Shown: positions 3,080 to 35,057 of the stretch, piece by piece
Position numbering within the stretch: position 1 is the first letter of the stretch
How the letters are laid out: every line of letters begins with the position of its first letter
Virus record (IMG/VR): IMGVR_UViG_640753023_000013
Length of the DNA stretch: 40,738 nucleotides
Reading direction: 5' to 3' (one strand)
Source: a virus
Lineage: Duplodnaviria; Heunggongvirae; Uroviricota; Caudoviricetes
Notes under the pieces: generated by a model
Database searches by the model: none
What the model was told of the DNA's origin: nothing
The model's input: the letters and a program-made list of their open reading frames with translations, nothing else
Made by a program: the position numbers and the translations under genes

Positions 3080-3360
3080 ACTTTCTCCTGTTTACTATCT
3101 ATAAGCCAGTCAATTATTGATGACTAAACCCGCATAGTAAACCATATATGAATCATTATTGTTCCGTATCATATATCTCAATAAAAGTACTAATGATTTT
3201 ACAGAACGAGCCAGCAGAGTGGGGGCAGTTGTACAGGAACCATAGACTTAATTTTGTATTTAATAATGCTATGGTGTAATAAACCTGAACATGTATTTAA
3301 AATACGTACTGATTCATGATAGAATTCAAAGATAACTTTTCACAAACTCCGTTTTTGATA

Positions 3361-3388
3361 CCCGCAAAATATTGCGGGCTTTTTTTTA
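3361..3388 (+). terminator. Hairpin plus T-run oriented for + strand transcription, between tailspike and lysis cassette
   Basis: CCCGCAAAATATTGCGGG followed by tttttttt; orientation is opposite to the flanking genes. Confidence 0.4.
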
Positions 3389-6300
3389 ACGTTCTTCCAG
3401 AGACTGAATCCGCTCTTTTATCTTATCCATTTCTCTGCGCTGCCATGCTGCCTCGATATAGAATAAGAGATCAGGTCTGACCCCCCATCTAGATCCTGCT
3501 GGCGTTATTTCAACGCGCTCAATGATGTCTTCCATTACCATCACTGGATTATCATCCTCATCAACAATGATGCTCCCGTCATTATCAGTCAGCGGCATTT
3601 CCCTTTGGCCAGTAATGACGTCATCATATACTGCGGGATAATCGTCATAGCAAAGAAAGGCATAGCGGCATGTTGTGCTTTCTTCTTCCATGAGTCCGTG
3701 AGAAATAAGAACATCACGAAGTTGCTGCGCGATTACACCATGATGTATCCTCGCCCCTTCTTCCCCCTTTATAGCGACAGCGTTCAGCCATTTATAAGCG
3801 ATATACCTGACGTCACCCCAGGCATCCAGCAATGCTTCGTCAGGAGAGACCGGCTCTGTCTTTAATGTTCCGTCACTGGTAACCACAGGATTGGAGCCAA
3901 GATAAACTGTCGAGAACCTGTTTCCCGGACCACCAAGAGCATTTACATTATCAAGATAAGGTTTAACATCTCCGTTCTCAAAAAGATGTTCGAGTGCGTT
4001 ATATACCGCGCGACGTGGAGTACTGCTTCCGGAACCATGCAACGTTATCATTGCACCATCTGCTGAAGACGTTGTTTCACCTCCGCTAACGATTAATCTC
4101 TGAGCGGTAACATCATCAGACGGTACTTTCTTCGCAATAATGGCGTAATTACCCTCAAGTTTGACTTCCGCGCGAACTTGTCCTGATGTACCTGCATGGA
4201 CAGTCAGTGACTGGACGGCAACATCATCTGTGAAATCAACGGGTACAGGAACCGTCCTCACGCCTGACGTCGACATAAAAGTAGGAAGCGTTCTGTTAGG
4301 AGTGGCTCCGTAGACAAAATCCCTTGAAACAAATTCTTCCTGTTTAATTTTCACCCTGAAACAATACAAATCAGCCGGGTGACCATCGTGAACATAAGGA
4401 TATTTTCTGTTGTTATCCCCTATGCTCCATGGGTTTAGAAAGTCTTCCCCACCGAAAATGTAGTACAGCCAGTTGTCTTTGATACAAACTGAACCAACAC
4501 CAACCGCAGAGTTAACTATTCCGCCCTGATAAATCTGATCAGTAACATTAACCCACTCTACATTATCCAGACTCCACTCATTGACGTTAACTCTGGTCAT
4601 AAATGTTCTTGGATAATTTCCTGCATAACGGTTATCAGGTTCTCCTCCTTCCCACTCACCAAATGCGCGCTCACTGCCAAAAATAATCAGCTCATCGCCA
4701 ACTTTGGCAAAAGGAAGGTTTGAGTGATGAACATTATTTGGGAAGCGAAGAGAATTCCATGATGTACCTAAATCAGAGCTTCTGTGCAATGAACTACCGG
4801 GTTGAGTACTTAATGTCCCCCTGGTCGTCAGATACAGAATGCCATCATAATATTTTACACATGGCTCAGATGCATTCGCCTCATATTCTGCAGGTATGCG
4901 TCTGCGAACAAAGCTACCAGGAGAACCGAAAGCATCAGAGAAATAGAGTATCCCAAGCTCGCGTGGACCAATATCACCATTATGGTAGCCAACAGCAAAA
5001 CTGTTATCGCTAATCGTCGCAAAACTGTGAATCTCAGTAACAGGAGTGCTTCCGTCAACAAAAGAAGGAATAGTTCCAAGACTGGTTTTTCTCCATGGTG
5101 ACGAGTGAAATGATGTACCAAAACTCCAGTATCTACCCTCGTTATTCTGATCCACATCCTGGGTATTTTGCGTCGTAACTGTAAAAGTATTTTTATCAAT
5201 AACAGTAGTCACCGTCATATTCCCGGTAACACCTGTAACACCAGAGTTTGAGAAGTTGACAAAATCACCAGCAAATAATCCGTGATCAGTAATGCGAATA
5301 TAAGCGACTTGCTGATTTGCTGCTTTCGTTATACCACCATAAACGCGAAGGCTGCGACTCATTGGGCGATCCCACAACTCTGCAACCTGCAGTTTATTTC
5401 CGCTCACGGTCCGCGTCTCAATTACAGCAAAAAGGCGATTTCTGACAACCCCCATACTCATGCAGTGATAGTTAACTGTGGGATAGTTTTCATGTAAATC
5501 TGTAAGCCATTCCGGCGTTGTCCAGGTCTTCCCGTCATCTCCTGAGCGAACCCATGCAACATGGAGGTTATTTACACCATGGCGGTCTCCAGCCATAAAA
5601 GGCGCATAGATGACATTGTCATATACAAACGTTTTATCCTGCGTCCAGGCGTTGTACCACGGTGTATCTGTAATTTTAAATAACTCTCCCTGGATAAAAT
5701 CTTCAGAAGCATAAAAAAGAGGCTGGCCCGGTATTCTCTCAAATAAAAAACGAGCATTTTTAAATCGACTGACATCCGGAAGAGTTGATACTTTAAAAGT
5801 AAGCCCTAATCCGTCAATTTTATAACCTGGAGATGAGGCTTCAAGGCACGCGCTTATTGCAGTGGAATCGTCATTTATACCATCACCAACAGCTCCAAAA
5901 TCTTTGGGGCTAATAGCATCACGCATTTTATCCTGGAACGTTCGGTACACAGCCCCAGAACCATACTGAATAAACCAACCAAAACCACCAACAACCCCGG
6001 CGATTGCAGCATCGACATAATTACGCATTGAGCGATTATTTACAGCGTCCTGCTCAAATGATGGATCTGCAAGGTTAGAAATTTTGTTTTGCTTTGCATC
6101 GTAATATTTTGCAAGCAAAGATGGTTTCATCAATGCACGTCTGAACCACCCAAAACATTGCTGGATCAGCATCGTCAGGTAGTCAAAGGCATCTTCATGC
6201 ACTTCGGGGAAAAATTTTCCCTGATTGCGAAGGTCTGTCTCCTGCACTACATCAAGCACACGATCTATCGTAATTCGCCATCCAGTAGCAAGCGGAGACG

Positions 6301-6505
6301 GAAGAACCACAGAACCGCCACTATAAGTGCCCGCCCCAGTTACCGTATAACCGGTATCCAGAACCAATTCTGTTACGTTCCCGTTCAGGTCAGACACCTG
6401 AACAACCAGGTCTGATTTTCTGAAAATTCGAAAAGTATACGGAAACGATGTCGTAACGCCGTTACCGGTGTATTCGTTGTGGTCAACTTCGGTTGAGACC
6501 GTCAT
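3386..6505 (-). CDS. Tailspike: N-terminal particle-binding domain, sialidase-like beta-propeller with two Asp-boxes, C-terminal intramolecular chaperone (peptidase S74-like); probable capsule depolymerase
   Basis: Asp-boxes SGDDGKTW and SSDLGTSW; C-terminus resembles the T5 L-shaped-fibre/endosialidase chaperone domain (SDGTLKTEP, FLCYDDY). Confidence 0.8.
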   Translation of the reverse strand: MTVSTEVDHNEYTGNGVTTSFPYTFRIFRKSDLVVQVSDLNGNVTELVLDTGYTVTGAGTYSGGSVVLPSPLATGWRITIDRVLDVVQETDLRNQGKFFPEVHEDAFDYLTMLIQQCFGWFRRALMKPSLLAKYYDAKQNKISNLADPSFEQDAVNNRSMRNYVDAAIAGVVGGFGWFIQYGSGAVYRTFQDKMRDAISPKDFGAVGDGINDDSTAISACLEASSPGYKIDGLGLTFKVSTLPDVSRFKNARFLFERIPGQPLFYASEDFIQGELFKITDTPWYNAWTQDKTFVYDNVIYAPFMAGDRHGVNNLHVAWVRSGDDGKTWTTPEWLTDLHENYPTVNYHCMSMGVVRNRLFAVIETRTVSGNKLQVAELWDRPMSRSLRVYGGITKAANQQVAYIRITDHGLFAGDFVNFSNSGVTGVTGNMTVTTVIDKNTFTVTTQNTQDVDQNNEGRYWSFGTSFHSSPWRKTSLGTIPSFVDGSTPVTEIHSFATISDNSFAVGYHNGDIGPRELGILYFSDAFGSPGSFVRRRIPAEYEANASEPCVKYYDGILYLTTRGTLSTQPGSSLHRSSDLGTSWNSLRFPNNVHHSNLPFAKVGDELIIFGSERAFGEWEGGEPDNRYAGNYPRTFMTRVNVNEWSLDNVEWVNVTDQIYQGGIVNSAVGVGSVCIKDNWLYYIFGGEDFLNPWSIGDNNRKYPYVHDGHPADLYCFRVKIKQEEFVSRDFVYGATPNRTLPTFMSTSGVRTVPVPVDFTDDVAVQSLTVHAGTSGQVRAEVKLEGNYAIIAKKVPSDDVTAQRLIVSGGETTSSADGAMITLHGSGSSTPRRAVYNALEHLFENGDVKPYLDNVNALGGPGNRFSTVYLGSNPVVTSDGTLKTEPVSPDEALLDAWGDVRYIAYKWLNAVAIKGEEGARIHHGVIAQQLRDVLISHGLMEEESTTCRYAFLCYDDYPAVYDDVITGQREMPLTDNDGSIIVDEDDNPVMVMEDIIERVEITPAGSRWGVRPDLLFYIEAAWQRREMDKIKERIQSLEER

Positions 6506-6609: not shown

Positions 6610-6624
6610 TTACCTTTCAGGTAA
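6610..6624. promoter_or_regulatory. Operator palindrome TTACC-TTTCA-GGTAA (site 1, perfect)
   Basis: Between tailspike start and the LexA-box gene. Confidence 0.6.
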
Positions 6625-6958: not shown

Positions 6959-7092
6959 GGTTTGCAATTACCAAGTGGAGTGCTTATATTTACCTTTGAG
7001 ATAAATTTACATCGCACTCCTCTTGTGCCATAGTAATCGGGCACTGGCAAAATCCAGTGCCGGGATTGGCGTCCCGGATTACTAAAAGGCGC

Positions 7093-7118
7093 ATTCACCG
7101 CGCAAGCGGTTTTTTTAT
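7093..7118 (+). terminator. Short hairpin plus T-run in the leader of the BRO-N gene
   Basis: CCGCgcaaGCGG followed by ttttttt. Confidence 0.4.
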
Positions 7119-7273
7119 GCGTATAGCACGGCCACATTCGTATTATGGTGGGCTGTGTGGGGGCACCGAAAGGTGCGCCGGGTCCTTTTAGCCGGTTACG
7201 CCAACCCTGCACAGTTCACCACCAACCGATTGGCGTCGGTAGTGGTGATTAACCAGACTAAAAGGTAACCACT

Positions 7274-7969
7274 ATGACAGCTACAAAAAGCACGTCCATT
7301 TTTTCTTTCGAATCCCAAGCCGATATACGGGTAATCGTCATTAATGGTGAGCCATGGTTTATCGCTTCAGATGTTTGTCGGGCTATAGGCATAGCAAACC
7401 ATCGAGATGCTGTTCGAAAACTTGATGATGATGAGAAGGGCGTCGCTTCAACCGACACCCCTGGCGGTGAGCAAGAATCGATCATCATCTCCGAGTCAGG
7501 CCTCTACACACTGATCCTCCGCTGCCGCGACGCAGTGACACCAGGCACTATCCCCTACCGCTTTCGTAAATGGGTTACAGGTGAGGTTCTTCCTCAGATC
7601 CGCCGCACCGGAAGCTACATTAAAAACTCGCTCCCGCAGGAAGAACGCATAAAGATGGTTGCCGACCAGGTAGCCAACGCCACGGCGTCAGCAGTAATGC
7701 AGGCGATGAAGATAGAGAACAAAACCTACAGCGCCCCGCTGAAGCCCGGCTACCGCAGCCTGATTCACTCGCCGTCTGGTGTTCTCGGCCTGACGGAAAA
7801 CTCACTGCTGATGAATCTGCTGAACCAGTTACAGGAAGACGGGCACGACGTATCGGGCGCGGCGGCGGAGGTGACCACCATGTTCTGCTACATCGTCGGT
7901 GTGAGTAAATGCCTGCGTGATATCCAGACCCACGCGGAATACATCAACGACAAGGCAGGGTTCTTCTGA
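7274..7969 (+). CDS. BRO-N domain antirepressor-type protein
   Basis: N-terminal Bro-N signature (IRVIVINGEPWFIASDVCRAIG, DDDEKG); C-terminal domain shared with the 6701 gene. Confidence 0.8.
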   Translation: MTATKSTSIFSFESQADIRVIVINGEPWFIASDVCRAIGIANHRDAVRKLDDDEKGVASTDTPGGEQESIIISESGLYTLILRCRDAVTPGTIPYRFRKWVTGEVLPQIRRTGSYIKNSLPQEERIKMVADQVANATASAVMQAMKIENKTYSAPLKPGYRSLIHSPSGVLGLTENSLLMNLLNQLQEDGHDVSGAAAEVTTMFCYIVGVSKCLRDIQTHAEYINDKAGFF

Positions 7970-8115: not shown

Positions 8116-8748
8116 ATGAGAACAAATACAACAAGAAAAGCGATGCCATACATTATCCCAGAAGCAGATTTCGATAGAAAACTGAACATGTCTGAGAAGA
8201 ACACTAGTCACACCGAAAGCTACTTAGCGAAAGGTGTGGTTGATTTCGTTCTTCCGGGATTCACAACACCTTATGGTTATCGCCTTGTAAAATCTTGTAA
8301 TGGCGATCATTACAGAATGATTACTACCAGCGATACTCCAGAAACGGTGTATGCGGTTAAGTTAATCTTTCGGGAAGATATCGTCGAAGCCAAAAGAACA
8401 TGTACGCAGATCATGGTATGGCGTACGCCTAATGTTATTCATGACCGTGCTGTTCATGGTTTGCCTCAGATTTTTTTTCAGTTCTTCCTAGAGCAATATG
8501 CGATCGTTGTATCTGATGAGCAACAAACAATCGATGGGAGAAGATTCTGGGAAAGAATGATTTCTTGGGCTATAAACACCCCAGGATATAATGTATACGT
8601 TTCAGATGGCTCTGAAGAAGATAGACCTCTTAGCTTCATGACATCATGGGATGATTTCTATAGCCAGTGGGCTGATTTCTGTTGGGGCAGTGATAAAGAT
8701 GTGCATACCCACAGACTACTGGTTATAAGCAAAGATAAACTGCATTAA
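8116..8748 (+). CDS. Hypothetical protein, AT-rich moron with own terminator; no recognisable domain
   Basis: 210 aa, GGGAGG RBS, AT-rich composition unlike neighbours. Confidence 0.65.
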   Translation: MRTNTTRKAMPYIIPEADFDRKLNMSEKNTSHTESYLAKGVVDFVLPGFTTPYGYRLVKSCNGDHYRMITTSDTPETVYAVKLIFREDIVEAKRTCTQIMVWRTPNVIHDRAVHGLPQIFFQFFLEQYAIVVSDEQQTIDGRRFWERMISWAINTPGYNVYVSDGSEEDRPLSFMTSWDDFYSQWADFCWGSDKDVHTHRLLVISKDKLH

Positions 8749-23435: not shown

Positions 23436-23728
23436 TCCTGTTCACTGGCCTCTTTGGCCATCTTCAAATACTGTTCAGGGCAATGCGCCATAACGCGCTG
23501 AAACAGCTCCAGCGCCAGATTGCGTTGCCCCTCATTAAATGCCATTGCCATAGCGTCCATCGGAGAGATAGCGGAAAACACCCGGCCTTTCTCCAGCACA
23601 GACCAGACAACGCGACGCCCCTGTTCACTGCTCATGACAAAGCGAATGTCATCAATTTCACGCTGCGCCATGTCACGTTGCTTACGGGCGTTTTCTTCTT
23701 TCAGTTGATCGTCTTCGTAATCTGTCAT
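23432..23728 (-). CDS. Hypothetical head morphogenesis protein
   Basis: 98 aa, overlaps portal stop and scaffold start. Confidence 0.5.
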   Translation of the reverse strand: MTDYEDDQLKEENARKQRDMAQREIDDIRFVMSSEQGRRVVWSVLEKGRVFSAISPMDAMAMAFNEGQRNLALELFQRVMAHCPEQYLKMAKEASEQE

Positions 23729-25404
23729 TGTGATTGCCCACCCTGACCACTAACTGCATTCGCCATAGCTGACAAAACACTCGGATCCGAAGTTTTAGCT
23801 TCGCTTAGCGTCTTGGCACCCTGTGCCGCCGCCATCCCCATCGCCATCATTTGTTGCTGCTGTTGCTGCTGTGCCCGTTGCTGGCGAGCCTGCTCAACCT
23901 GTTCCTGCGGAACAATGACGGTTGGAGACACTCCGGACATATCAGCGAATGCATCGATCGCCTGATCAACGTTGAGTTTGTCGAGAGCTTCTGGTTTCCC
24001 TTGCGCAAGTTGACCAATGAAGTTAACCGTGGACGCCAGACTGGACAGGCCGATAGACTTCTGCGCCTGAGCCATGACGGAAATGTATTCGACCTTCAGG
24101 GGCATGCCTTCCATCGCGTCAGGCGGTGGCGGCAGCATGTTTTTACGCACCATCATCGAGAAAGCGCGGTCAATGAGAGGATTAAGACATTCGTCGTTCA
24201 GACGCTCCAGAACCGGCCCCAACATCAGAAGTTTTTCTTCTTTCATTTCGATCACCGCTTCAACAGGCATCGAGCGGGTATTGATGTTCTGCAACATCAT
24301 GAACAGATCGACGAAGTAGGCGCTGTTGATGGTCTGCCGCGTATCTTGGATGTCGCTGATTAAATCCGCAGTGTTAGGGTTAACCTGATAAACAGGCCTT
24401 AATCCTTCCTGTCCAGTCAGTTGATCTACGTATGTGACGCCACCAGGAAGTAACGAAACACTCTGTGTTCTGAGGGTGGTAGGGGCAACCATCGGAGGGT
24501 TTGTCACTTTGTCGATGATCTGCGACTTGCGCTTCTGAAGAAGCTGCAATGCCTTAACAGGTCCAAGCGCCAGCATACCCGGGCATGATGATCCATAAAC
24601 ATCCTCGCCGTTAACTTCCCAGCGCGGAGCCATAATTGGAAACTCATCGAATCCGGACTCACGCAACAACTTGTCGTTATCGCCGCCAACCTCGTAATAA
24701 ACCGATTTGAATGGCTTGTTCTTGCTATCCAGCTTCGATGTATCGCGGTCAATGTTCGGGTAAACCGAATGCATCACTTCGATCCACTTCTCGTAGGTGC
24801 CGCTTTCCCACATGCTTTTTACGGATTCGCTGACGTTATTTAGCCCGAACTCCTGAACAAGCTGACGAACAGTCATAGAGAACTTGCGAAAACAGGTGTC
24901 AACACTGCCACGAGGTGAGTTAGCCAGGTAGTAACTGCCTATCGGGAATGGCATTGTGCGAATGATGTCCTCGTCATCCTCCAGCACTGCCATTGCACCA
25001 GTGCTGTATGTGCCGAGGCTTCCGTATAACTGCGGCAGCGACTGATAGAGATTCGACTTATTGAACATATCGTTCATGCGGTTCTGCACCGCCTCAAGCC
25101 ACAACTTAACAGGGCCATAATCCATCATTTCAGGATCTGGCGTAGCCAGGCGAAACCACGGACGCGCGGGGCTTGTGATGCCTGACATCATGCCGCTGGC
25201 GAGAGTGCGCGCCGCCATAGTCCCGGTCGAATCAATAATACGTGTATTGCGTCGATCGTTACGGTTGACCTCAGAAGTCAGAAAGCGGGAACCACGCGGG
25301 TTGATATAATCACTCAACTCGCGCCAGTGCGGCTCGAACGACTGACGCTCGCTTTCAAGTTGTGCGAACTGTTTGTTCAATCGCTCTTTAGTTGTTTCCG
25401 CCAT
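23725..25404 (-). CDS. Portal protein
   Basis: 559 aa, GGAG RBS, position and size. Confidence 0.7.
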   Translation of the reverse strand: MAETTKERLNKQFAQLESERQSFEPHWRELSDYINPRGSRFLTSEVNRNDRRNTRIIDSTGTMAARTLASGMMSGITSPARPWFRLATPDPEMMDYGPVKLWLEAVQNRMNDMFNKSNLYQSLPQLYGSLGTYSTGAMAVLEDDEDIIRTMPFPIGSYYLANSPRGSVDTCFRKFSMTVRQLVQEFGLNNVSESVKSMWESGTYEKWIEVMHSVYPNIDRDTSKLDSKNKPFKSVYYEVGGDNDKLLRESGFDEFPIMAPRWEVNGEDVYGSSCPGMLALGPVKALQLLQKRKSQIIDKVTNPPMVAPTTLRTQSVSLLPGGVTYVDQLTGQEGLRPVYQVNPNTADLISDIQDTRQTINSAYFVDLFMMLQNINTRSMPVEAVIEMKEEKLLMLGPVLERLNDECLNPLIDRAFSMMVRKNMLPPPPDAMEGMPLKVEYISVMAQAQKSIGLSSLASTVNFIGQLAQGKPEALDKLNVDQAIDAFADMSGVSPTVIVPQEQVEQARQQRAQQQQQQQMMAMGMAAAQGAKTLSEAKTSDPSVLSAMANAVSGQGGQSQ

Positions 25405-25418
25405 TTCAATGACTCCGG

Positions 25419-25625
25419 TTACTGACCAAGTAGCGTTTTACCGCTGGTATTAGCGGTTGATGTGTCGCCCTGAGAACCGGTAAGCAGCGTAGAACTACGA
25501 CCAGCAGCAGCGCGACGGCGACGTGTTTCTTCGTCGCGGGCATCAACAACGGCGGCATCCTGCTCCTGTGGTGCTGCCTGAACTTCTGGTGTTGCAGGCA
25601 CTGATGGTGAGCTACCCATGCACAT
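25419..25625 (-). CDS. Small hypothetical protein upstream of portal
   Basis: 68 aa, GGAG RBS; the overlapping 25406-25645 frame looks spurious. Confidence 0.35.
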   Translation of the reverse strand: MCMGSSPSVPATPEVQAAPQEQDAAVVDARDEETRRRRAAAGRSSTLLTGSQGDTSTANTSGKTLLGQ

Positions 25626-25715
25626 ATCAATGACTCCGTACGCAATTAAATTATTACCAATTTAACCACATATGATTTATTTATCGTAGATAGTTGACAT
25701 TTAACGCACAAATTA

Positions 25716-25730
25716 TTACCTTTCAGGTAG
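25716..25730. promoter_or_regulatory. Operator palindrome TTACC-TTTCA-GGTAg (site 3, one mismatch), next to a TTGACA -35-like hexamer at 25694-25699
   Basis: Same core and flank as site 1. Confidence 0.5.
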
Positions 25731-26052
25731 CTAAAGAGTTCATTCCGGTTACTAACCTGACTGGCTTGTCGTTAAATTGAACAGGTGGAGTGAGCTTTTG
25801 TTTTGAGCAGTACGGCGTATGGCACATGCGCCGATAGCGGTCTGGATACGTTTAAGGGGCACCCTCCCTTGCTCGGGCAAACGAACCAGGTAGCCGGAAT
25901 GTGCAAGTCGAGCGGTTTTATTCCGCGCACGGGGATTCACCATCCCGGCGATTCGGTGTGACGCCTCGGAAGAGACGAGGGTACAACGATGAGAGCATTT
26001 ATGGAGCCGCGACAAAGTGTGGCGCCTTAACAGGCTAAGTGCTCTCAGCGTT

Positions 26053-26129
26053 GTGGCATTAGCTCAGTTGGACAGAGCAACCGCCTTCTAAGCGGTTGGT
26101 CGCGGGTTCGAATCCTGCATGCCACGCCA
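26053..26129 (+). tRNA. tRNA-Arg (anticodon TCT, reads AGA), phage-encoded
   Basis: Cloverleaf: acceptor GTGGCAT/ATGCCAC, anticodon stem ACCGC/GCGGT with loop CTTCTAA, T-loop GGTTCGAATCC, genomic CCA; differs from E. coli argU in acceptor and anticodon stems. Confidence 0.9.
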
Positions 26130-26292
26130 GAATCACGCCTAAGGACCGTGATGCCAGAAGTTCCAGGTACTTGGCGGTGATGGTTTCCCTTGAAGGACTA
26201 TCACCGCTCTTTTTACAGCAGGACGCCATTGCGATGACTTCATGCTGTAAACCCGTACAGCCACGGAAGGCATAACTCATTGCTTCCAGTTC

Positions 26293-26316
26293 GCCCGGTT
26301 CGCCGGGCATTTTTTT
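26293..26316 (+). terminator. Rho-independent terminator after the tRNA
   Basis: GCCCGG-ttcg-CCGGGC followed by atttttt. Confidence 0.65.
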
Positions 26317-26327
26317 AAGGTGAGATT

Positions 26328-26708
26328 ATGAACGACCAGCAAATCGAAAAAGAAATTGTTGAGAAAGGCAAAACGGCACCGCGAATCACTCCTCAGCACA
26401 TCGAAGACGTGATTAAAAGCGAGCATTACTTTACTGCTTATGATGGACGTAATGGTGCAATTTCCAGCAACGAATATTGTGGCAGAGAAAAACCAGAAGA
26501 AGGTGATCGTGATTTATCACCATTGAAGTTGCTCACTTTCTGCGTACTGGTGCTGAAGAATGGCTTCACCGTCACCGGAGAGAGCGCCTGTGCAAGCCCG
26601 GAAAATTTTGATGCAGAAATTGGTCGGAAGATTGCCCGGCAGAATGCTGTAAACAAAATCTGGATGCTTGAAGGTTACTTGCTGAAGCAGAAGTTAAGCG
26701 AGCAATAA
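26328..26708 (+). CDS. Phage protein of the gp49/gene-66 type (unknown function)
   Basis: 126 aa on the opposite strand to its neighbours; family assignment from recalled similarity only. Confidence 0.55.
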   Translation: MNDQQIEKEIVEKGKTAPRITPQHIEDVIKSEHYFTAYDGRNGAISSNEYCGREKPEEGDRDLSPLKLLTFCVLVLKNGFTVTGESACASPENFDAEIGRKIARQNAVNKIWMLEGYLLKQKLSEQ

Positions 26709-26712
26709 CACC

Positions 26713-26724
26713 GTGACATGTCAC
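26713..26724. repeat. Palindrome GTGACATGTCAC (copy 2 of 3)
   Basis: Perfect 12-bp palindrome 5 nt after the stop of the 26328 gene. Confidence 0.7.
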
Positions 26725-26728
26725 AAAC

Positions 26729-26755
26729 AGCCAGCCTATGAGCTGGCTTTGTTTT
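26729..26755 (+). terminator. Rho-independent terminator
   Basis: AGCCAGC-ctatga-GCTGGCT followed by ttgtttt. Confidence 0.65.
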
Positions 26756-26798
26756 ATCCTCACCAGAGGATATCAACGACATTATCCCCACCAGCGGA

Positions 26799-28274
26799 TT
26801 AAGCATAGGGATCGTAATCTGTGATGGCCTTGCCTTGCTGGTTCTGCTGCCCGGGAATTCGCAGACGCTTCGACACAGGGAACGCAAACGTCAGCAGTAG
26901 CGCATCGCCTTTACCCGGCGAACGCCCAAGTCGCTCTTTGATATCTTCCTTCGGTTCGATAACGATTTTACCGTCCACGCGAACTTTGTACTCTGCCGCC
27001 GACAGGTCGTCCGCTGTTTCCTGGTCATCCAGCATGCCGCCCAGCCTCAGCCATGTCTTGCATGAGTTGAACATCTCCCCACGCTTGTTAAGCATCTGCG
27101 GGTCAGTAGACGCGCCACCGAACGGAACAAGTTGCCATGTACGCCCCCAACCGTCACCGATTGACTTCAGACCGGTACCGTAACCGAAGTCGATGAACAC
27201 CGCGTCAGCCTGGTACTGGTCTTCAAAGTCAGCGATACGCTTCGCCATAATCAGATCGTCGGTGGTCTTGTTGCCAGTCCACAGCACCTTACTGTGTAGC
27301 CCCTGCCGCAGGTATATCACAGCGTCATCAACGCCGGAGTATGCCGGGTCAACGCCGATTATCACCGGAGAATGTGCAACCTGCGCAGCGGTTACCACCC
27401 GTTTCATTGCCTCGTCAGTAAGACCGGTAGGGATAAACTGCAATTCAGATGCATCAGGGAATATGCCACGCACACGGATTTTAACGAAGTCGCTGTCTTC
27501 CCCGTAGTCATCAACCCATTTCTGCAACTGCTGTTTGTTGGTACCTTCCACCGTCCGACTGTCAATCTGCGCAGTTTTCCAGCGGTGTTTATACTTGCGG
27601 AAACATTCACGGAAACGTCCGGTATTACGCGTCGGGTTTCCGAACGCCACCCAGATAATCTCAGTGTCTTCGTCCGTTAGCGCACCCTCGGCAACTTCCC
27701 ACACCAGATCCGCAATGTTCGACGCTTCATCGAATACCACGATGATGCGTTTGCGCTCGTTGTGTAGTCCGGCGAATGCCTCAGTGTTGTGCTCAGACCA
27801 GGGTATTGCGTCAGCCCGCCACCGCTTGTCGTGCCCTGGGTCATTGCTGTACATCGCGGTAGCAGTACAGGTAAACCAGTCTTTCGTGATAGCAAGGTTC
27901 GACCACTTGATAATTTCCGGCCAGGTCTTCGTTCGTAGCTGGTTGTCGGTGTTGGCGGTCACCACGACCTTACAATCCTCGCAAGTGGACATGCCCCAGT
28001 TGATCAGCATTGAGATGAATGCGGATTTACCAATACCGTGACCAGAAGCGCGTGCCAGCATAAGCGGCTGATAGCGCGTCTCTGGATTCTGCAGGTGATC
28101 ACGTATCTCTCGGAACGCATCAGCCTGCCATTGACGTGGGCCGGTAGCATGTGCCAGTTCAGTCCCCTCTTCCCCCCACGGGAACGCATAGAGGGCATAG
28201 CCAAGCGGATCGTGAGTGAACCCTGCAATATCCTCGATCAACTGCTCTTCAGGAGATAACGCTGTATCTGTCAC
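26799..28274 (-). CDS. Terminase large subunit
   Basis: Walker A-like GHGIGKS, 491 aa, GTG start overlapping terminase small stop. Confidence 0.85.
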   Translation of the reverse strand: MTDTALSPEEQLIEDIAGFTHDPLGYALYAFPWGEEGTELAHATGPRQWQADAFREIRDHLQNPETRYQPLMLARASGHGIGKSAFISMLINWGMSTCEDCKVVVTANTDNQLRTKTWPEIIKWSNLAITKDWFTCTATAMYSNDPGHDKRWRADAIPWSEHNTEAFAGLHNERKRIIVVFDEASNIADLVWEVAEGALTDEDTEIIWVAFGNPTRNTGRFRECFRKYKHRWKTAQIDSRTVEGTNKQQLQKWVDDYGEDSDFVKIRVRGIFPDASELQFIPTGLTDEAMKRVVTAAQVAHSPVIIGVDPAYSGVDDAVIYLRQGLHSKVLWTGNKTTDDLIMAKRIADFEDQYQADAVFIDFGYGTGLKSIGDGWGRTWQLVPFGGASTDPQMLNKRGEMFNSCKTWLRLGGMLDDQETADDLSAAEYKVRVDGKIVIEPKEDIKERLGRSPGKGDALLLTFAFPVSKRLRIPGQQNQQGKAITDYDPYA

Positions 28275-28867
28275 TGATTACCATCCTGACGTTCTTTGAG
28301 TCGCTTCCTGGCTGCTGCTATGCGATCAGCAATTGTCACTTTCACATTAACATCCAGGCGTTCTTTGAATGCGTTGACGTCGACGTGCTTACCAATCAGT
28401 TCGAGGTTCTTCACCTTGTCAGGCCATTTAATTTTTTTGAGGATTGTCTCTATCGAATCCTCGTTCATGTTCATGATGGTCGATGACAGATCAAAGCCAC
28501 TAAGCGTAGTGCGCCAGATTTTCGGCCACTCGCGGATTGGCTTAAGGCTCCCATCGTCGTTGAGGATGTCGATCACGTCCATCTGGTCGATCTCCACCAG
28601 GCGCATGAGAACGTAATCAGCACTGACGCGCATTCGTTTGTTGCGCTCCTCCATCAACTCGGCAATCCGTTTTTGAATGCGTTCATCGCGCATCATGACA
28701 CTGGCTTTAACTGCCGCTGTATTTGGGGAGAATCCTGCGTTAATCGCTGCCTGAGTCTGGTTTTCAGGCGTTTTGATGTATGACTGGCAATAAGCCTCCT
28801 GCATTGCTGTGAGCGGCTTAAATTGCGTTGATTTGCGTTTATAGGTTTTAGGTTCAGCAGGCATCAT
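28271..28867 (-). CDS. Terminase small subunit (start revised from the TTG at 28945)
   Basis: ATG at 28867/28864 with GGTGG RBS; region 28868-28945 holds an operator palindrome and a terminator. Confidence 0.55.
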   Translation of the reverse strand: MMPAEPKTYKRKSTQFKPLTAMQEAYCQSYIKTPENQTQAAINAGFSPNTAAVKASVMMRDERIQKRIAELMEERNKRMRVSADYVLMRLVEIDQMDVIDILNDDGSLKPIREWPKIWRTTLSGFDLSSTIMNMNEDSIETILKKIKWPDKVKNLELIGKHVDVNAFKERLDVNVKVTIADRIAAARKRLKERQDGNQ

Positions 28868-28884
28868 AACCACCATGGTAATAG

Positions 28885-28899
28885 TTACCGTTGTGGTAA
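28885..28899. promoter_or_regulatory. Operator palindrome TTACC-GTTGT-GGTAA (site 4, perfect), 18 nt upstream of the terminase small start
   Basis: Perfect half-sites. Confidence 0.55.
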
Positions 28900-28910
28900 T
28901 AGTACCATGC

Positions 28911-28936
28911 AAAATAAAGCCGCCATAGTTGGCGGC
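28911..28936 (-). terminator. Rho-independent terminator on the minus strand just upstream of the terminase genes
   Basis: GCCGCC-aactat-GGCGGC followed by tttatttt on the minus strand. Confidence 0.55.
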
Positions 28937-28941
28937 AGTAT

Positions 28942-29154
28942 TCAAAGTCCATCAAATTCATCGTAAAAACTCTCGTCAAGATACCCTTCCCATTTACCGC
29001 GAATGAAAATTACATCCTCGCCGCAAGGGTGCTGACTGTCGATAACTATATCCCTCCTGGCGCAACCATACTTATGCATGAGAAATTTAACCTCTTTCGG
29101 AAAATTTGCTGAGTTATCTCTCATATCTTCAAGGTCGTAGCGTATTTTTGGCAT
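28942..29154 (-). CDS. Hypothetical protein
   Basis: ATG at 29154 with GAAGG RBS (track starts at a GTG at 29175). Confidence 0.45.
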   Translation of the reverse strand: MPKIRYDLEDMRDNSANFPKEVKFLMHKYGCARRDIVIDSQHPCGEDVIFIRGKWEGYLDESFYDEFDGL

Positions 29155-34352: not shown

Positions 34353-34937
34353 ATGAAAAGTATCCAGGACGTCCGCAGGCAAAATCTCAACGACTTGATC
34401 GACCGTGAATTCAATGGTGTTCAGACGCGGATGGCAGAAAAACTTGGAACTCAGGCAAATCTGGTAAACCGCTGGGCTCTTGGCAAGAAGGTTATCGGCG
34501 ACCAGGTTGCGCGAAAAATTGAAGCTGCCGCCAATAAACCACGTAACTGGCTTGATATCGATCGCTCGCTTTCTCAGGAAGGTTTTCAGCCTGTCGGCCC
34601 GAGCGATATAGGTCAGCTGGCGGCTCACAACCTGGAACGCTGGATGAGCGAAAGCCGCGACCTTTCAACACAGGGAAAACTTCACCGCGCATCCGGCGTC
34701 GCCCAGGTGACAATCAGCCGCCTGTTAAACAATGAGGTCAGCGTTTCCATTTCCACCCTGGAGAATGTTGCATCCGCATTCGGGCGTCACGGATATGAAC
34801 TACTGATTCACCCGCACGACCCTGCGACTATCAACTATGACCGCTCACGCTACGCATTGTTACCCGAAACCGAGAAAGCAAAGATCGAAAGTTACATTGA
34901 ATTTGTCATCAACCAGAACGAAAAAAGCAAACAATAA
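34353..34937 (+). CDS. Prophage repressor with two HTH (XRE-type) domains and no S24 peptidase domain
   Basis: Two HTH-like segments (QTRMAEKLGTQANLVNRW and LHRASGVAQVTISRLL); no Ala-Gly/Ser-Lys self-cleavage module. Confidence 0.7.
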   Translation: MKSIQDVRRQNLNDLIDREFNGVQTRMAEKLGTQANLVNRWALGKKVIGDQVARKIEAAANKPRNWLDIDRSLSQEGFQPVGPSDIGQLAAHNLERWMSESRDLSTQGKLHRASGVAQVTISRLLNNEVSVSISTLENVASAFGRHGYELLIHPHDPATINYDRSRYALLPETEKAKIESYIEFVINQNEKSKQ

Positions 34938-34994: not shown

Positions 34995-35009
34995 TTACCT
35001 TACGGGTAA
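34995..35009. promoter_or_regulatory. Operator palindrome TTACC-TTACG-GGTAA (site 11, perfect)
   Basis: 20 bp upstream of a TTGACA -35 hexamer. Confidence 0.6.
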
Positions 35010-35028: not shown

Positions 35029-35057
35029 TTGACACCAAACCAAATAAGCATAATTAT
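35029..35057 (+). promoter_or_regulatory. Candidate sigma70 early-left promoter (TTGACA, 16-17 bp spacer, TAATTA/AATTAT)
   Basis: Consensus -35; -10 candidates directly followed by operator site 12. Confidence 0.4.

Follow-up and report, generated by a model that had tools for sequence, protein, structure and literature searches.

A phage tRNA-Arg gene between terminase and portal occupies an exchangeable slot behind a conserved structured leader RNA

Introduction

What is a tRNA gene doing between the terminase and portal genes of a phage, on the strand opposite to both? The question is raised by the virus record IMGVR_UViG_640753023_000013, a stretch of 40,738 nucleotides (nt) of Caudoviricetes DNA that is analyzed here at its full length and called the window. 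In it, a plus-strand unit made up of a promoter with an operator, about 330 bp of noncoding sequence, a tRNA-Arg(UCU) gene, predicted terminators, and a gene for a protein of 126 amino acids (aa) interrupts the minus-strand late genes. A sequence-only reading had picked out this tRNA module between terminase and portal, and every element that it listed is present at or near the place it gave. The same reading left the 330 bp unassigned. It was right insofar as this part holds no convincing open reading frame (ORF) and matches nothing in Rfam, but the sequence is not a spacer, as it holds a conserved structured RNA. The tRNA alone is ordinary and is already annotated in several phiV10-like genomes. 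It is one interchangeable occupant of a slot behind this leader RNA, a strongly constrained element that is found in one third of complete Escherichia coli genomes and in phage P1 and is apparently undescribed.

Structure of the leader RNA

The leader is encoded on the plus strand and opens with an optional 5' hairpin (25729 to 25807, with a fold of -23 kcal/mol) that is missing in phage SPN9TCW and whose counterpart is marked as an RNase III site in the epsilon15 annotation. This is followed by the conserved core (25808 to 25983), which the covariance model R1 recognizes with 144 bits and an E value of 9e-47. Across copies the core measures 161 to 176 nt, or approximately 170 nt, and its structure was derived from 35 non-redundant representatives. 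It begins with hairpin A, CGGCG-UAUGGCACAUG-CGCCG, in which positions 25813 to 25817 pair with 25829 to 25833. Helix P2a/P2, formed by 25838 to 25845 with 25886 to 25889 and 25893 to 25896, closes a variable arm, and at 25889 to 25907 lies a 19-nt invariant stretch, GGUAGCCGGAAUGUGCAAG. A variable hairpin B stands between this 19-mer and hairpin C, whose helix (25932 to 25935 with 25943 to 25946) carries the loop YUCACCA. The last element is hairpin D, CCUCG[GAAGAGA]CGAGG, which pairs 25964 to 25968 with 25976 to 25980 and has the loop GAAGAGA. Two pseudoknots are predicted. Pseudoknot 1 would pair the loop of hairpin A (25822 to 25827, GCACAU) with AUGUGC at 25899 to 25904, inside the 19-mer, and pseudoknot 2 would pair the loop of hairpin C (25938 to 25941, CACC) with GGUG at 25955 to 25958.

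When the window is aligned with phiV10, SPN9TCW, and a Klebsiella phage, fully identical blocks are split by inserts of widely varying length. Among the 35 representatives, 98% of the cells of the covariation analysis are paired, and 11 pairs have changed on both sides. Doubly changed cells number 76 compared with 19.8 in shuffles, none of 500 shuffles reaches the observed values on any measure, and controls in which the pairing was slid pair only 28 to 40% of cells. The frequency of G-U pairs places the structure on the plus strand. This pattern of changes marks the leader as a covariation-supported structured RNA on that strand. For the second pseudoknot, 3 of the 35 sequences share a single compensatory change from C-G to A-U. 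The strands of the first are almost invariant, and six scans of IMG/VR for single-base changes of its 3' strand returned 15 genuine variants, six of which pair through G-U while nine mismatch and none is compensated. Pseudoknot 1 remains a prediction.

Rfam gives no match at E ≤ 10 in the approximately 330 bp between promoter and tRNA. Within 25600 to 26800 only the tRNA reaches even E = 0.01, and nothing matches the units of six other loci. The covariance model finds no further real copy of the core in the window. A 15-bit antisense match at 36563 to 36699 on the minus strand lies inside an ORF, keeps the helices poorly, and was judged a chance match. A protein-coding reading of the leader was also rejected, as indels of many lengths across relatives exclude a reading frame. 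On the opposite strand, ORFs extend over the tRNA or the core: PhiV10p04 in phiV10 (3420 to 3671 of our locus L001), mEp460_037 in mEp460 (2443 to 2811 of L005), and 25752 to 26015 and 26059 to 26310, both minus strand, in the window. These ORFs are most likely spurious, which corrects the annotation of phiV10 and mEp460, where they cover the core.

Distribution and genomic context of the core

When the 353-nt leader was used as the query in a sensitive blastn search, its 3' two-thirds matched phages of quite different kinds. Among these are the lambdoid phages mEp460, cdtI, Stx2c and Stx2a phages, and mEp390; the P1 group with P1, P7, D6, SJ46, and RCS47; and, outside both groups, the Uetakeviruses Tyrion and PAT1, the Klebsiella phage SopranoGao, and a phage recorded as infecting Stenotrophomonas. 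The 19-mer, GGTAGCCGGAATGTGCAAG, is identical in all of the phages matched. It is present in at least 120 stretches of IMG/VR and, as an exact match, in 24 stretches of a collection holding one genome per species, which come from Enterobacteriaceae or Erwinia save for two doubtful metagenome-assembled genomes. The core occurs in 1835 of 5426 complete E. coli genomes, and among the RefSeq matches listed none has an annotation over it. The literature is equally silent: the invariant strings of the core are absent from searchable papers, no description of the core was found, and the P1 CRISPR interference and transcriptome papers list only trnI and ban. A preprint on Pas small RNAs was considered as a prior description and set aside, as it concerns other loci. 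The core family is widespread, unannotated, and without an Rfam family.

The surroundings of the core differ between phage types. In lambdoid phages it lies 7 to 70 nt downstream of a strong promoter with operator-like repeats, after a cI-type repressor gene, and this is the PL position (examples are mEp460, mEp390, and locus L118). Counted over unique loci, the core follows a strong promoter by 7 to 120 nt in 53 of 116, and a repressor gene of the S24/LexA type stands just upstream on the same strand in about 50 of 114. P1 has its copy between trnI and ban, inside the C1-controlled ban operon. The upstream genes are repressors of several types, those downstream range from Ban, Gp49, and an excisionase to many without a known function, and no conserved neighboring or partner protein was found. 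At least one terminator-like hairpin separates the core from the first ORF in 97 of 115 unique loci, the exceptions being mostly of the P1 type. A boxA is seen in only 1 of 116 unique loci, from which it follows that nut sites of the N/Nus type are generally absent. The string UGCUCUUU, which occurs in some stem domains, was considered as a nut element and rejected, being the paired 3' strand of a helix. In Tyrion (L007), an int-alpA RNA (Rfam RF02996, 44 bits) is found at 3708 to 3772, downstream of the RNA unit.

An exchangeable slot behind the leader

Between core and tRNA the leader forms a stem domain (25984 to 26052, plus strand, fold -31.6 kcal/mol), in which CAACG..GAGAGCA closes onto UGCUCUC..CGUU. 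The inner hairpin region at 26001 to 26033 is variable and can be replaced wholesale between near-identical units, for example in L036. All 28 distinct variants retain the closing helix, built from 17 different sequences among them, and this helix ends, GUUG/UGG, exactly at the start of the tRNA.

The slot that opens at this point is occupied by tRNA-Arg in only 27 of 123 core-carrying loci. Other cargos have a closing stem of 6 to 7 bp resembling an acceptor stem, then two unpaired bases and a hairpin, with the hairpins placed as in a tRNA; a last hairpin of 5 bp abuts the 3' strand, and an N-CCA end is present in many. Both hairpins of these cargos show compensatory changes. The enteropathogenic E. 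coli (EPEC) strain E2348/69 carries a 113-nt cargo (L157, 2735 to 2847) with canonical D and T arms, an oversized and aberrant middle, and a C-CCA end, which RefSeq (PGAP) labels a pseudogenic tRNA-Gly. Neither ARAGORN nor the Rfam tRNA model makes a call on the other tRNA-like cargos. We read these cargos as tRNA-like from their geometry, their N-CCA ends, and the one pseudogenic-tRNA label in RefSeq. The same hairpin, AUCACG-CCUAAGGAC-CGUGAU (26132 to 26152, plus strand, in the window), is kept after true tRNAs and tRNA-like cargos.

Several known RNAs resemble parts of this arrangement. The GOLLD and ROOL RNAs, reported by Weinberg et al. in 2009 and 2017, are said to be large, elaborate, phage-encoded RNAs that often lie beside tRNA genes. 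The unit is likewise a large RNA near a tRNA, being some 490 to 590 nt long with the tRNA inside it, but neither Rfam model matches. GOLLD and ROOL are found mainly in Firmicutes and other phyla, whereas the core family belongs to phages of Enterobacterales, and the unit, unlike either, is a leader behind an early promoter with an exchangeable slot. In the tRNA cluster of phage T4, tRNAs are co-transcribed with the tRNA-sized stable RNAs C and D (species 1 and 2), which are processed like tRNAs. The combination of true tRNA and tRNA-like RNAs is shared, although here the two alternate in one slot; T4 is a lytic phage without a conserved pseudoknotted leader, and no sequence relation was seen. 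The C4 RNA of P1 and P7 and the CI RNA of P4 are small antisense RNAs with a tRNA-like acceptor end that RNase P cuts from an early leader transcript. The C4 model matches the window at 7141 to 7226 and nothing inside the unit, no complementary target sites were found, and the part conserved in C4 and CI is the processed RNA, whereas in the unit it is the leader.

Promoter, operator, and probable repressor control

The unit begins at a promoter with the -35 element TTGACA (25694 to 25699), a 17-bp spacer, and the -10 element TACCTT (25717 to 25722) on the plus strand. A generic promoter scan does not list it because its -10 matches at three of six positions. The promoter is invariant in the alignment across phages of E. 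coli, Salmonella, and Klebsiella, and the TTGACA-17-TACCTT arrangement is also found upstream of the core in many loci. The operator half-palindrome, TTACCTTTCAGGTAG, occupies 25716 to 25730 and overlaps both the -10 and the predicted start site. Its palindromic motif, TTACC-N5-GGTAA, occurs 13 times in the window compared with 0.65 expected, with one mismatch permitted, so that the candidate promoter and operator proposed from sequence have held up well. The sites are at 6610, 6990, 8042, 25716, 28867, 28885, 31934, 31996, 33898, 34235, 34283, 34995, and 35057, and they mark a repressor regulon made up of the antirepressor region, the RNA unit, the start of the terminase operon, and the immunity region. 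In the last of these, the sites at 34995 and 35057 adjoin a helix-turn-helix repressor-like gene (34353 to 34937), and the site at 35057 is directly downstream of another TTGACA promoter. The annotation of epsilon15 marks the equivalent of 25716 to 25730 as a repressor binding site. Because the phage operator overlaps the -10 of the promoter, we conclude that the RNA and tRNA unit is by all appearances an early, repressor-controlled transcript and not part of the late programme.

Between this unit and the divergent gp3 and portal genes lies an AT-rich block (25644 to 25683, strand unassigned), which is identical in the window, phiV10, SPN9TCW, and the Klebsiella phage ST512-KPC3phi13.3 in the four-phage alignment. 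It holds one copy of the 10-mer AATTATTACC (25649 to 25658), and this 10-mer is found again at 25711 and, in the immunity region, at 35052.

Terminators and the accessory gene

Beyond the cargo, the plus strand carries three predicted intrinsic terminators, T1, T2, and T3, each a GC-rich hairpin followed by a U run. T1 (26173 to 26214, with its hairpin at 26173 to 26208) is a 14-bp helix followed by CUUUUUA, and its conserved ends, UUGGCGG...ACCGCCCUUUUUACA, are seen in many loci. An inverted repeat, I1, forms a further hairpin at 26212 to 26251, ACAGCAGG...CAUGCUGU, between T1 and T2, and is conserved in the phage alignment. T2 (26293 to 26316, with its hairpin at 26293 to 26308) is the strong GCCCGG-UUCG-CCGGGC followed by U7, and is kept in phiV10, the Klebsiella phage, epsilon15, and E2348/69. 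The ATG of the following gene comes 12 nt after the end of this U run. T2 abuts the ribosome-binding site, which leaves no room for a separate promoter of the downstream gene. That gene (26328 to 26708, plus strand) is an accessory gene, or moron, of the Gp49/Sf6 gp66 family. Its 126-aa product matches the Pfam domain PF13876 (Phage_gp49_66) with E 3e-35 and 120.8 bits compared with a gathering threshold of 27. T3 (26729 to 26757, with its hairpin at 26729 to 26748) is shared with the convergent large terminase gene and is annotated in phiV10. The expectation from sequence that terminators flank a 126-aa gene after the tRNA is borne out by these three hairpins and the Phage_gp49_66 ORF, and the region from 25400 to 27000 holds five terminator-like sites compared with 1.7 expected.

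The tRNA, its codons, and the attachment site

ARAGORN finds a single tRNA in the whole 40.7-kb window, a tRNA-Arg with anticodon TCT at 26053 to 26129 on the plus strand, in the cargo slot. The Rfam tRNA model (RF00005) scores it at 70.1 bits compared with a gathering score of 29, and with these two calls the tRNA can be taken as genuine. The arginyl-tRNA synthetase recognizes A20 and C35 as identity elements. With its anticodon UCU, its agreement with the A20/C35 rule, and a 3' CCA that is encoded in the gene, the sequence at 26053 to 26129 has the features expected of a tRNA-Arg(UCU) isoacceptor. It is 84.5% identical to argU of E. coli K-12. The anticodon loop is shared, the D and T arms are nearly the same, both genes encode the CCA, and the D loop and anticodon loop agree except at position 20a, whereas the acceptor stem, the anticodon stem, and the variable loop differ, in line with the earlier remark that its stems are not those of host argU. 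The phage tRNA also differs from argU in not being an attachment (att) site and in being embedded in a structured early RNA.

The sequence-only reading had argued that the tRNA is not the integration target, and the evidence agrees. The window holds no second copy of the 3' half of the tRNA, with up to three mismatches allowed, the integrase gene (39482 to 40738) is about 13 kb away, free phage genomes carry the same tRNA at the equivalent place, and 25 kb separate the tRNA of the window from the true att core. This core, ATTGAGTGGGAATGATT, is an exact copy of that of phiV10 and epsilon15 and occurs once in the window, at 1163 to 1179 on the minus strand, at the opposite end from the integrase. 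The att core of phiV10, epsilon15, and ZX5 targets the 3' end of guaA (PMC9782041). The copy at 1163 to 1179 marks one end of the prophage, so the window contains nearly all of it.

Phage tRNAs often serve to supply decoding capacity for codons that are rare in the host. Counted with one simple ORF heuristic on both sequences, AGA makes up 8.17 per 1000 codons in the window compared with 1.49 per 1000 in a 50-kb sample of K-12, and is thus 5.5 times commoner in the phage; AGG stands at 4.40 compared with 0.88 per 1000. Since AGA is commoner than in the host, codon supplementation is plausible. The AGA-rich genes are those of the K1 endosialidase tailspike (16 AGA), tail and injection proteins, and accessory functions. 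An ORF without a Pfam match (8116 to 8748, plus strand, 210 aa) uses AGA for 10 of its 14 Arg codons. This ORF, which is probably an accessory gene acquired not long ago, is a strong candidate for a gene served by the phage tRNA. Against this role, AGA is nearly absent from the terminase, portal, protease, and capsid genes. An early supply of tRNA-Arg(UCU) could thus serve AGA-rich genes that are expressed later. Quite probably, RNase P together with 3' trimming would release the tRNA, which would then supplement AGA decoding. The tRNA is present in 78 of 80 phiV10-like contigs.

Proposed function of the leader

Early transcription, the stage at which phages decide host takeover, opens with the leader in several families of temperate enterobacterial phages. 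On balance, the evidence tips towards the unit being an immediate-early, repressor-controlled noncoding-RNA cassette. Once the repressor leaves the operator, sigma-70 RNA polymerase would start near 25729 and would first make about 325 nt of structured leader consisting of the optional 5' hairpin, the core, and the long closing stem. The tRNA-Arg(UCU) in the cargo slot would be transcribed next, and transcription would then pass the hairpin, T1, and T2 to reach the interchangeable accessory gene. The start site near 25729, cleavage by RNase P, and read-through of the terminators are steps that we infer from the sequence.

As to the core itself, we lean towards an action in cis on its own transcript. 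A role of this kind is favored because the core is always 5' of, and co-oriented with, very different downstream elements, because no conserved protein partner accompanies it, and because it never forms a gene on its own. In a set of 73 phiV10-like contigs, the stretch from the promoter to T2 is constant (minor alleles of 1 to 3%) and the gene after T2 is swapped (42%); these contigs come from a portal-based search, are only 96 to 99% relatives, and add no divergence. An RNA unit that stays constant while its downstream gene is exchanged counts in favor of an action in cis and of read-through.

What this action would be is a matter for a more tentative proposal. The core may make RNA polymerase resistant to termination, similar to the put RNAs of phage HK022, and thereby carry it past T1 and T2 and, in the lambdoid phages, into the early-left genes. 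This idea arises because the core is promoter-proximal and terminators precede genes without a promoter of their own, because the early-left genes of lambdoid phages (xis in one locus) lie beyond terminators, and because nut sites are absent. The HK022 put RNA is approximately 70 nt long, has two stem-loops, and acts without phage proteins (PMC9378689). Like the core, putL and putR are located just downstream of repressor-controlled early promoters in a temperate coliphage, with terminators beyond them and without an N/boxA system. The core was nevertheless rejected as a member of the put family on size and fold, judged by the published description of put (PMC9378689).

Several observations weigh against read-through and against the wider proposal. 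With about 170 nt, four helices (A, P2, C, and D), and two predicted pseudoknots, the core does not resemble put. Each of the two early operons of HK022 has a put site, while the core occurs once per phage, and in P1 it is found in the middle of an operon. In copies of the P1 type, no terminator intervenes before ban. In the lambdoid-type locus L090 (approximately 3330 to 3400), the core is directly followed by a hairpin and a perfect rrn-type boxA (UGCUCUUUAACAA), an rrn-like boxB-boxA site that holds the one boxA seen among the 116 unique loci. Pseudoknot 1 is without covariation support. Finally, a deletion in epsilon15 (L006, 2545 to 2625), which joins UUCCCUUGAUGCU of the P2 arm to a second copy of this motif in the loop of T1, has removed most of the core along with the stem domain and the cargo. 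The phage retains the 3' half of T1, T2, and the downstream gene, and is viable, from which it follows that the unit is dispensable for growth of epsilon15. If the leader does modify RNA polymerase, it would be only the second type of RNA-only antiterminator known in phages.

The first alternative is that the leader is a scaffold for processing and stability, which would fold on its own, ensure clean cuts by RNase P and RNase E around the cargo, and protect the 5' end of the RNA behind it against decay, and would leave the polymerase unaffected. Much of the layout suits this idea: the cargo begins exactly where the long helix ends, a conserved hairpin follows the CCA end, and some copies, such as L071 and P1, stand directly before an ORF. 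The P1 core is immediately 3' of trnI, where processing would create a new 5' end for the ban mRNA. We nonetheless place it on the unlikely side, as a 170-nt core with invariant stretches of 19 and 11 nt, kept from phages of E. coli to those of Erwinia, far exceeds known leader or stabilizer hairpins, and the terminators before promoterless genes would be left unexplained.

The boldest extension of the read-through proposal is doubtful. It holds that temperate enterobacterial phages of at least three lineages (lambdoid, P1-like, and Uetakevirus) put the core at the head of early transcripts as a novel kind of antiterminator that consists of RNA only, acts close to the promoter, and has no relation to put in sequence or fold. 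It would drive expression of the slot RNAs, a true tRNA or CCA-ending tRNA mimics, as immediate-early RNAs of host takeover or counter-defence.

The leader, alone or with its cargo, could instead act in trans as an immediate-early RNA that binds a host factor, for example as a decoy or inhibitor of a tRNA-directed nuclease, of another defence system, or of an RNA-processing enzyme, with the tRNA and its mimics as replacements or decoys. The leader is the first RNA made from repressor-controlled early promoters, its invariant loops suggest recognition by a conserved host machine, the cargos are CCA-ending tRNA look-alikes with variable bodies, and no phage protein partner is conserved; termination at T1 would yield a discrete RNA of about 490 nt. 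We regard such a role as improbable, since the core is also found without cargo and terminator, as the 5' untranslated region of ban or other ORFs, and is never found as a stand-alone gene with its own terminator. If it were the case, the leader and tRNA-like cargos would form a new set of early phage RNAs. A role as a sponge for CsrA was rejected, as GGA is not enriched (11 observed compared with 10.5 expected).

There is only a slim chance that the core is a riboswitch-like sensor that tunes early read-through of the terminators to some metabolite or signal of the host. It resembles an aptamer in the invariant nucleotides at its junctions, its predicted pseudoknots, and the variability of its peripheral stems, and it stands upstream of terminators, but what follows it varies (the stem domain, an ORF, or a nut-like site), no shared expression platform overlaps it, and nothing indicates a ligand. 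Hardly credible is the reading that this is an ordinary phage tRNA whose upstream conservation reflects recent ancestry, or an old attachment site, or a set of small-protein genes: the phiV10 and mEp460 records do annotate opposite-strand hypothetical proteins and close relatives are 96 to 99% identical, but the core is common to unrelated phage types with different flanks at 70 to 80% identity, with compensatory changes and G-U pairs, and there is neither an att-type repeat nor, given indels of many lengths, a reading frame.

The phage and its other features

The region is 96 to 98% identical to phiV10-like phages of the genus Uetakevirus, and the window represents a phiV10/epsilon15-like (Uetakevirus) prophage integrated at guaA. 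Free phages with the same layout are phiV10, the O157 typing phages 9 and 10, SPN9TCW, and the Klebsiella phage ST512-KPC3phi13.3; in these the order is terminase, a variable gene, tRNA-Arg, approximately 330 to 400 nt of noncoding sequence, gp3, and portal. In the window, the unit is flanked on one side by a gp3-like gene of 68 aa (25419 to 25625) and the portal gene (23725 to 25404; Head-tail_con, E 3e-186), both on the minus strand. On the other side are the minus-strand genes for the large terminase (26799 to 28274), which matches phrog_2 and is annotated likewise in phiV10, and the small terminase (28271 to 28945). The tailspike gene (3386 to 6505, minus strand) encodes a complete K1-capsule endosialidase with its intramolecular chaperone domain, which makes this phiV10-like prophage K1-specific. 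Two RNAs stand one behind the other at 7041 to 7226 on the plus strand, isrK with 77.9 bits and the C4 antisense RNA with 77.7 bits, just upstream of a Bro-N antirepressor-like gene (ORF 7274 to 7969, plus strand), and the same pair is found in mEp460. This cluster is an antirepressor control module of the P1 immI type inside a Uetakevirus-like prophage.

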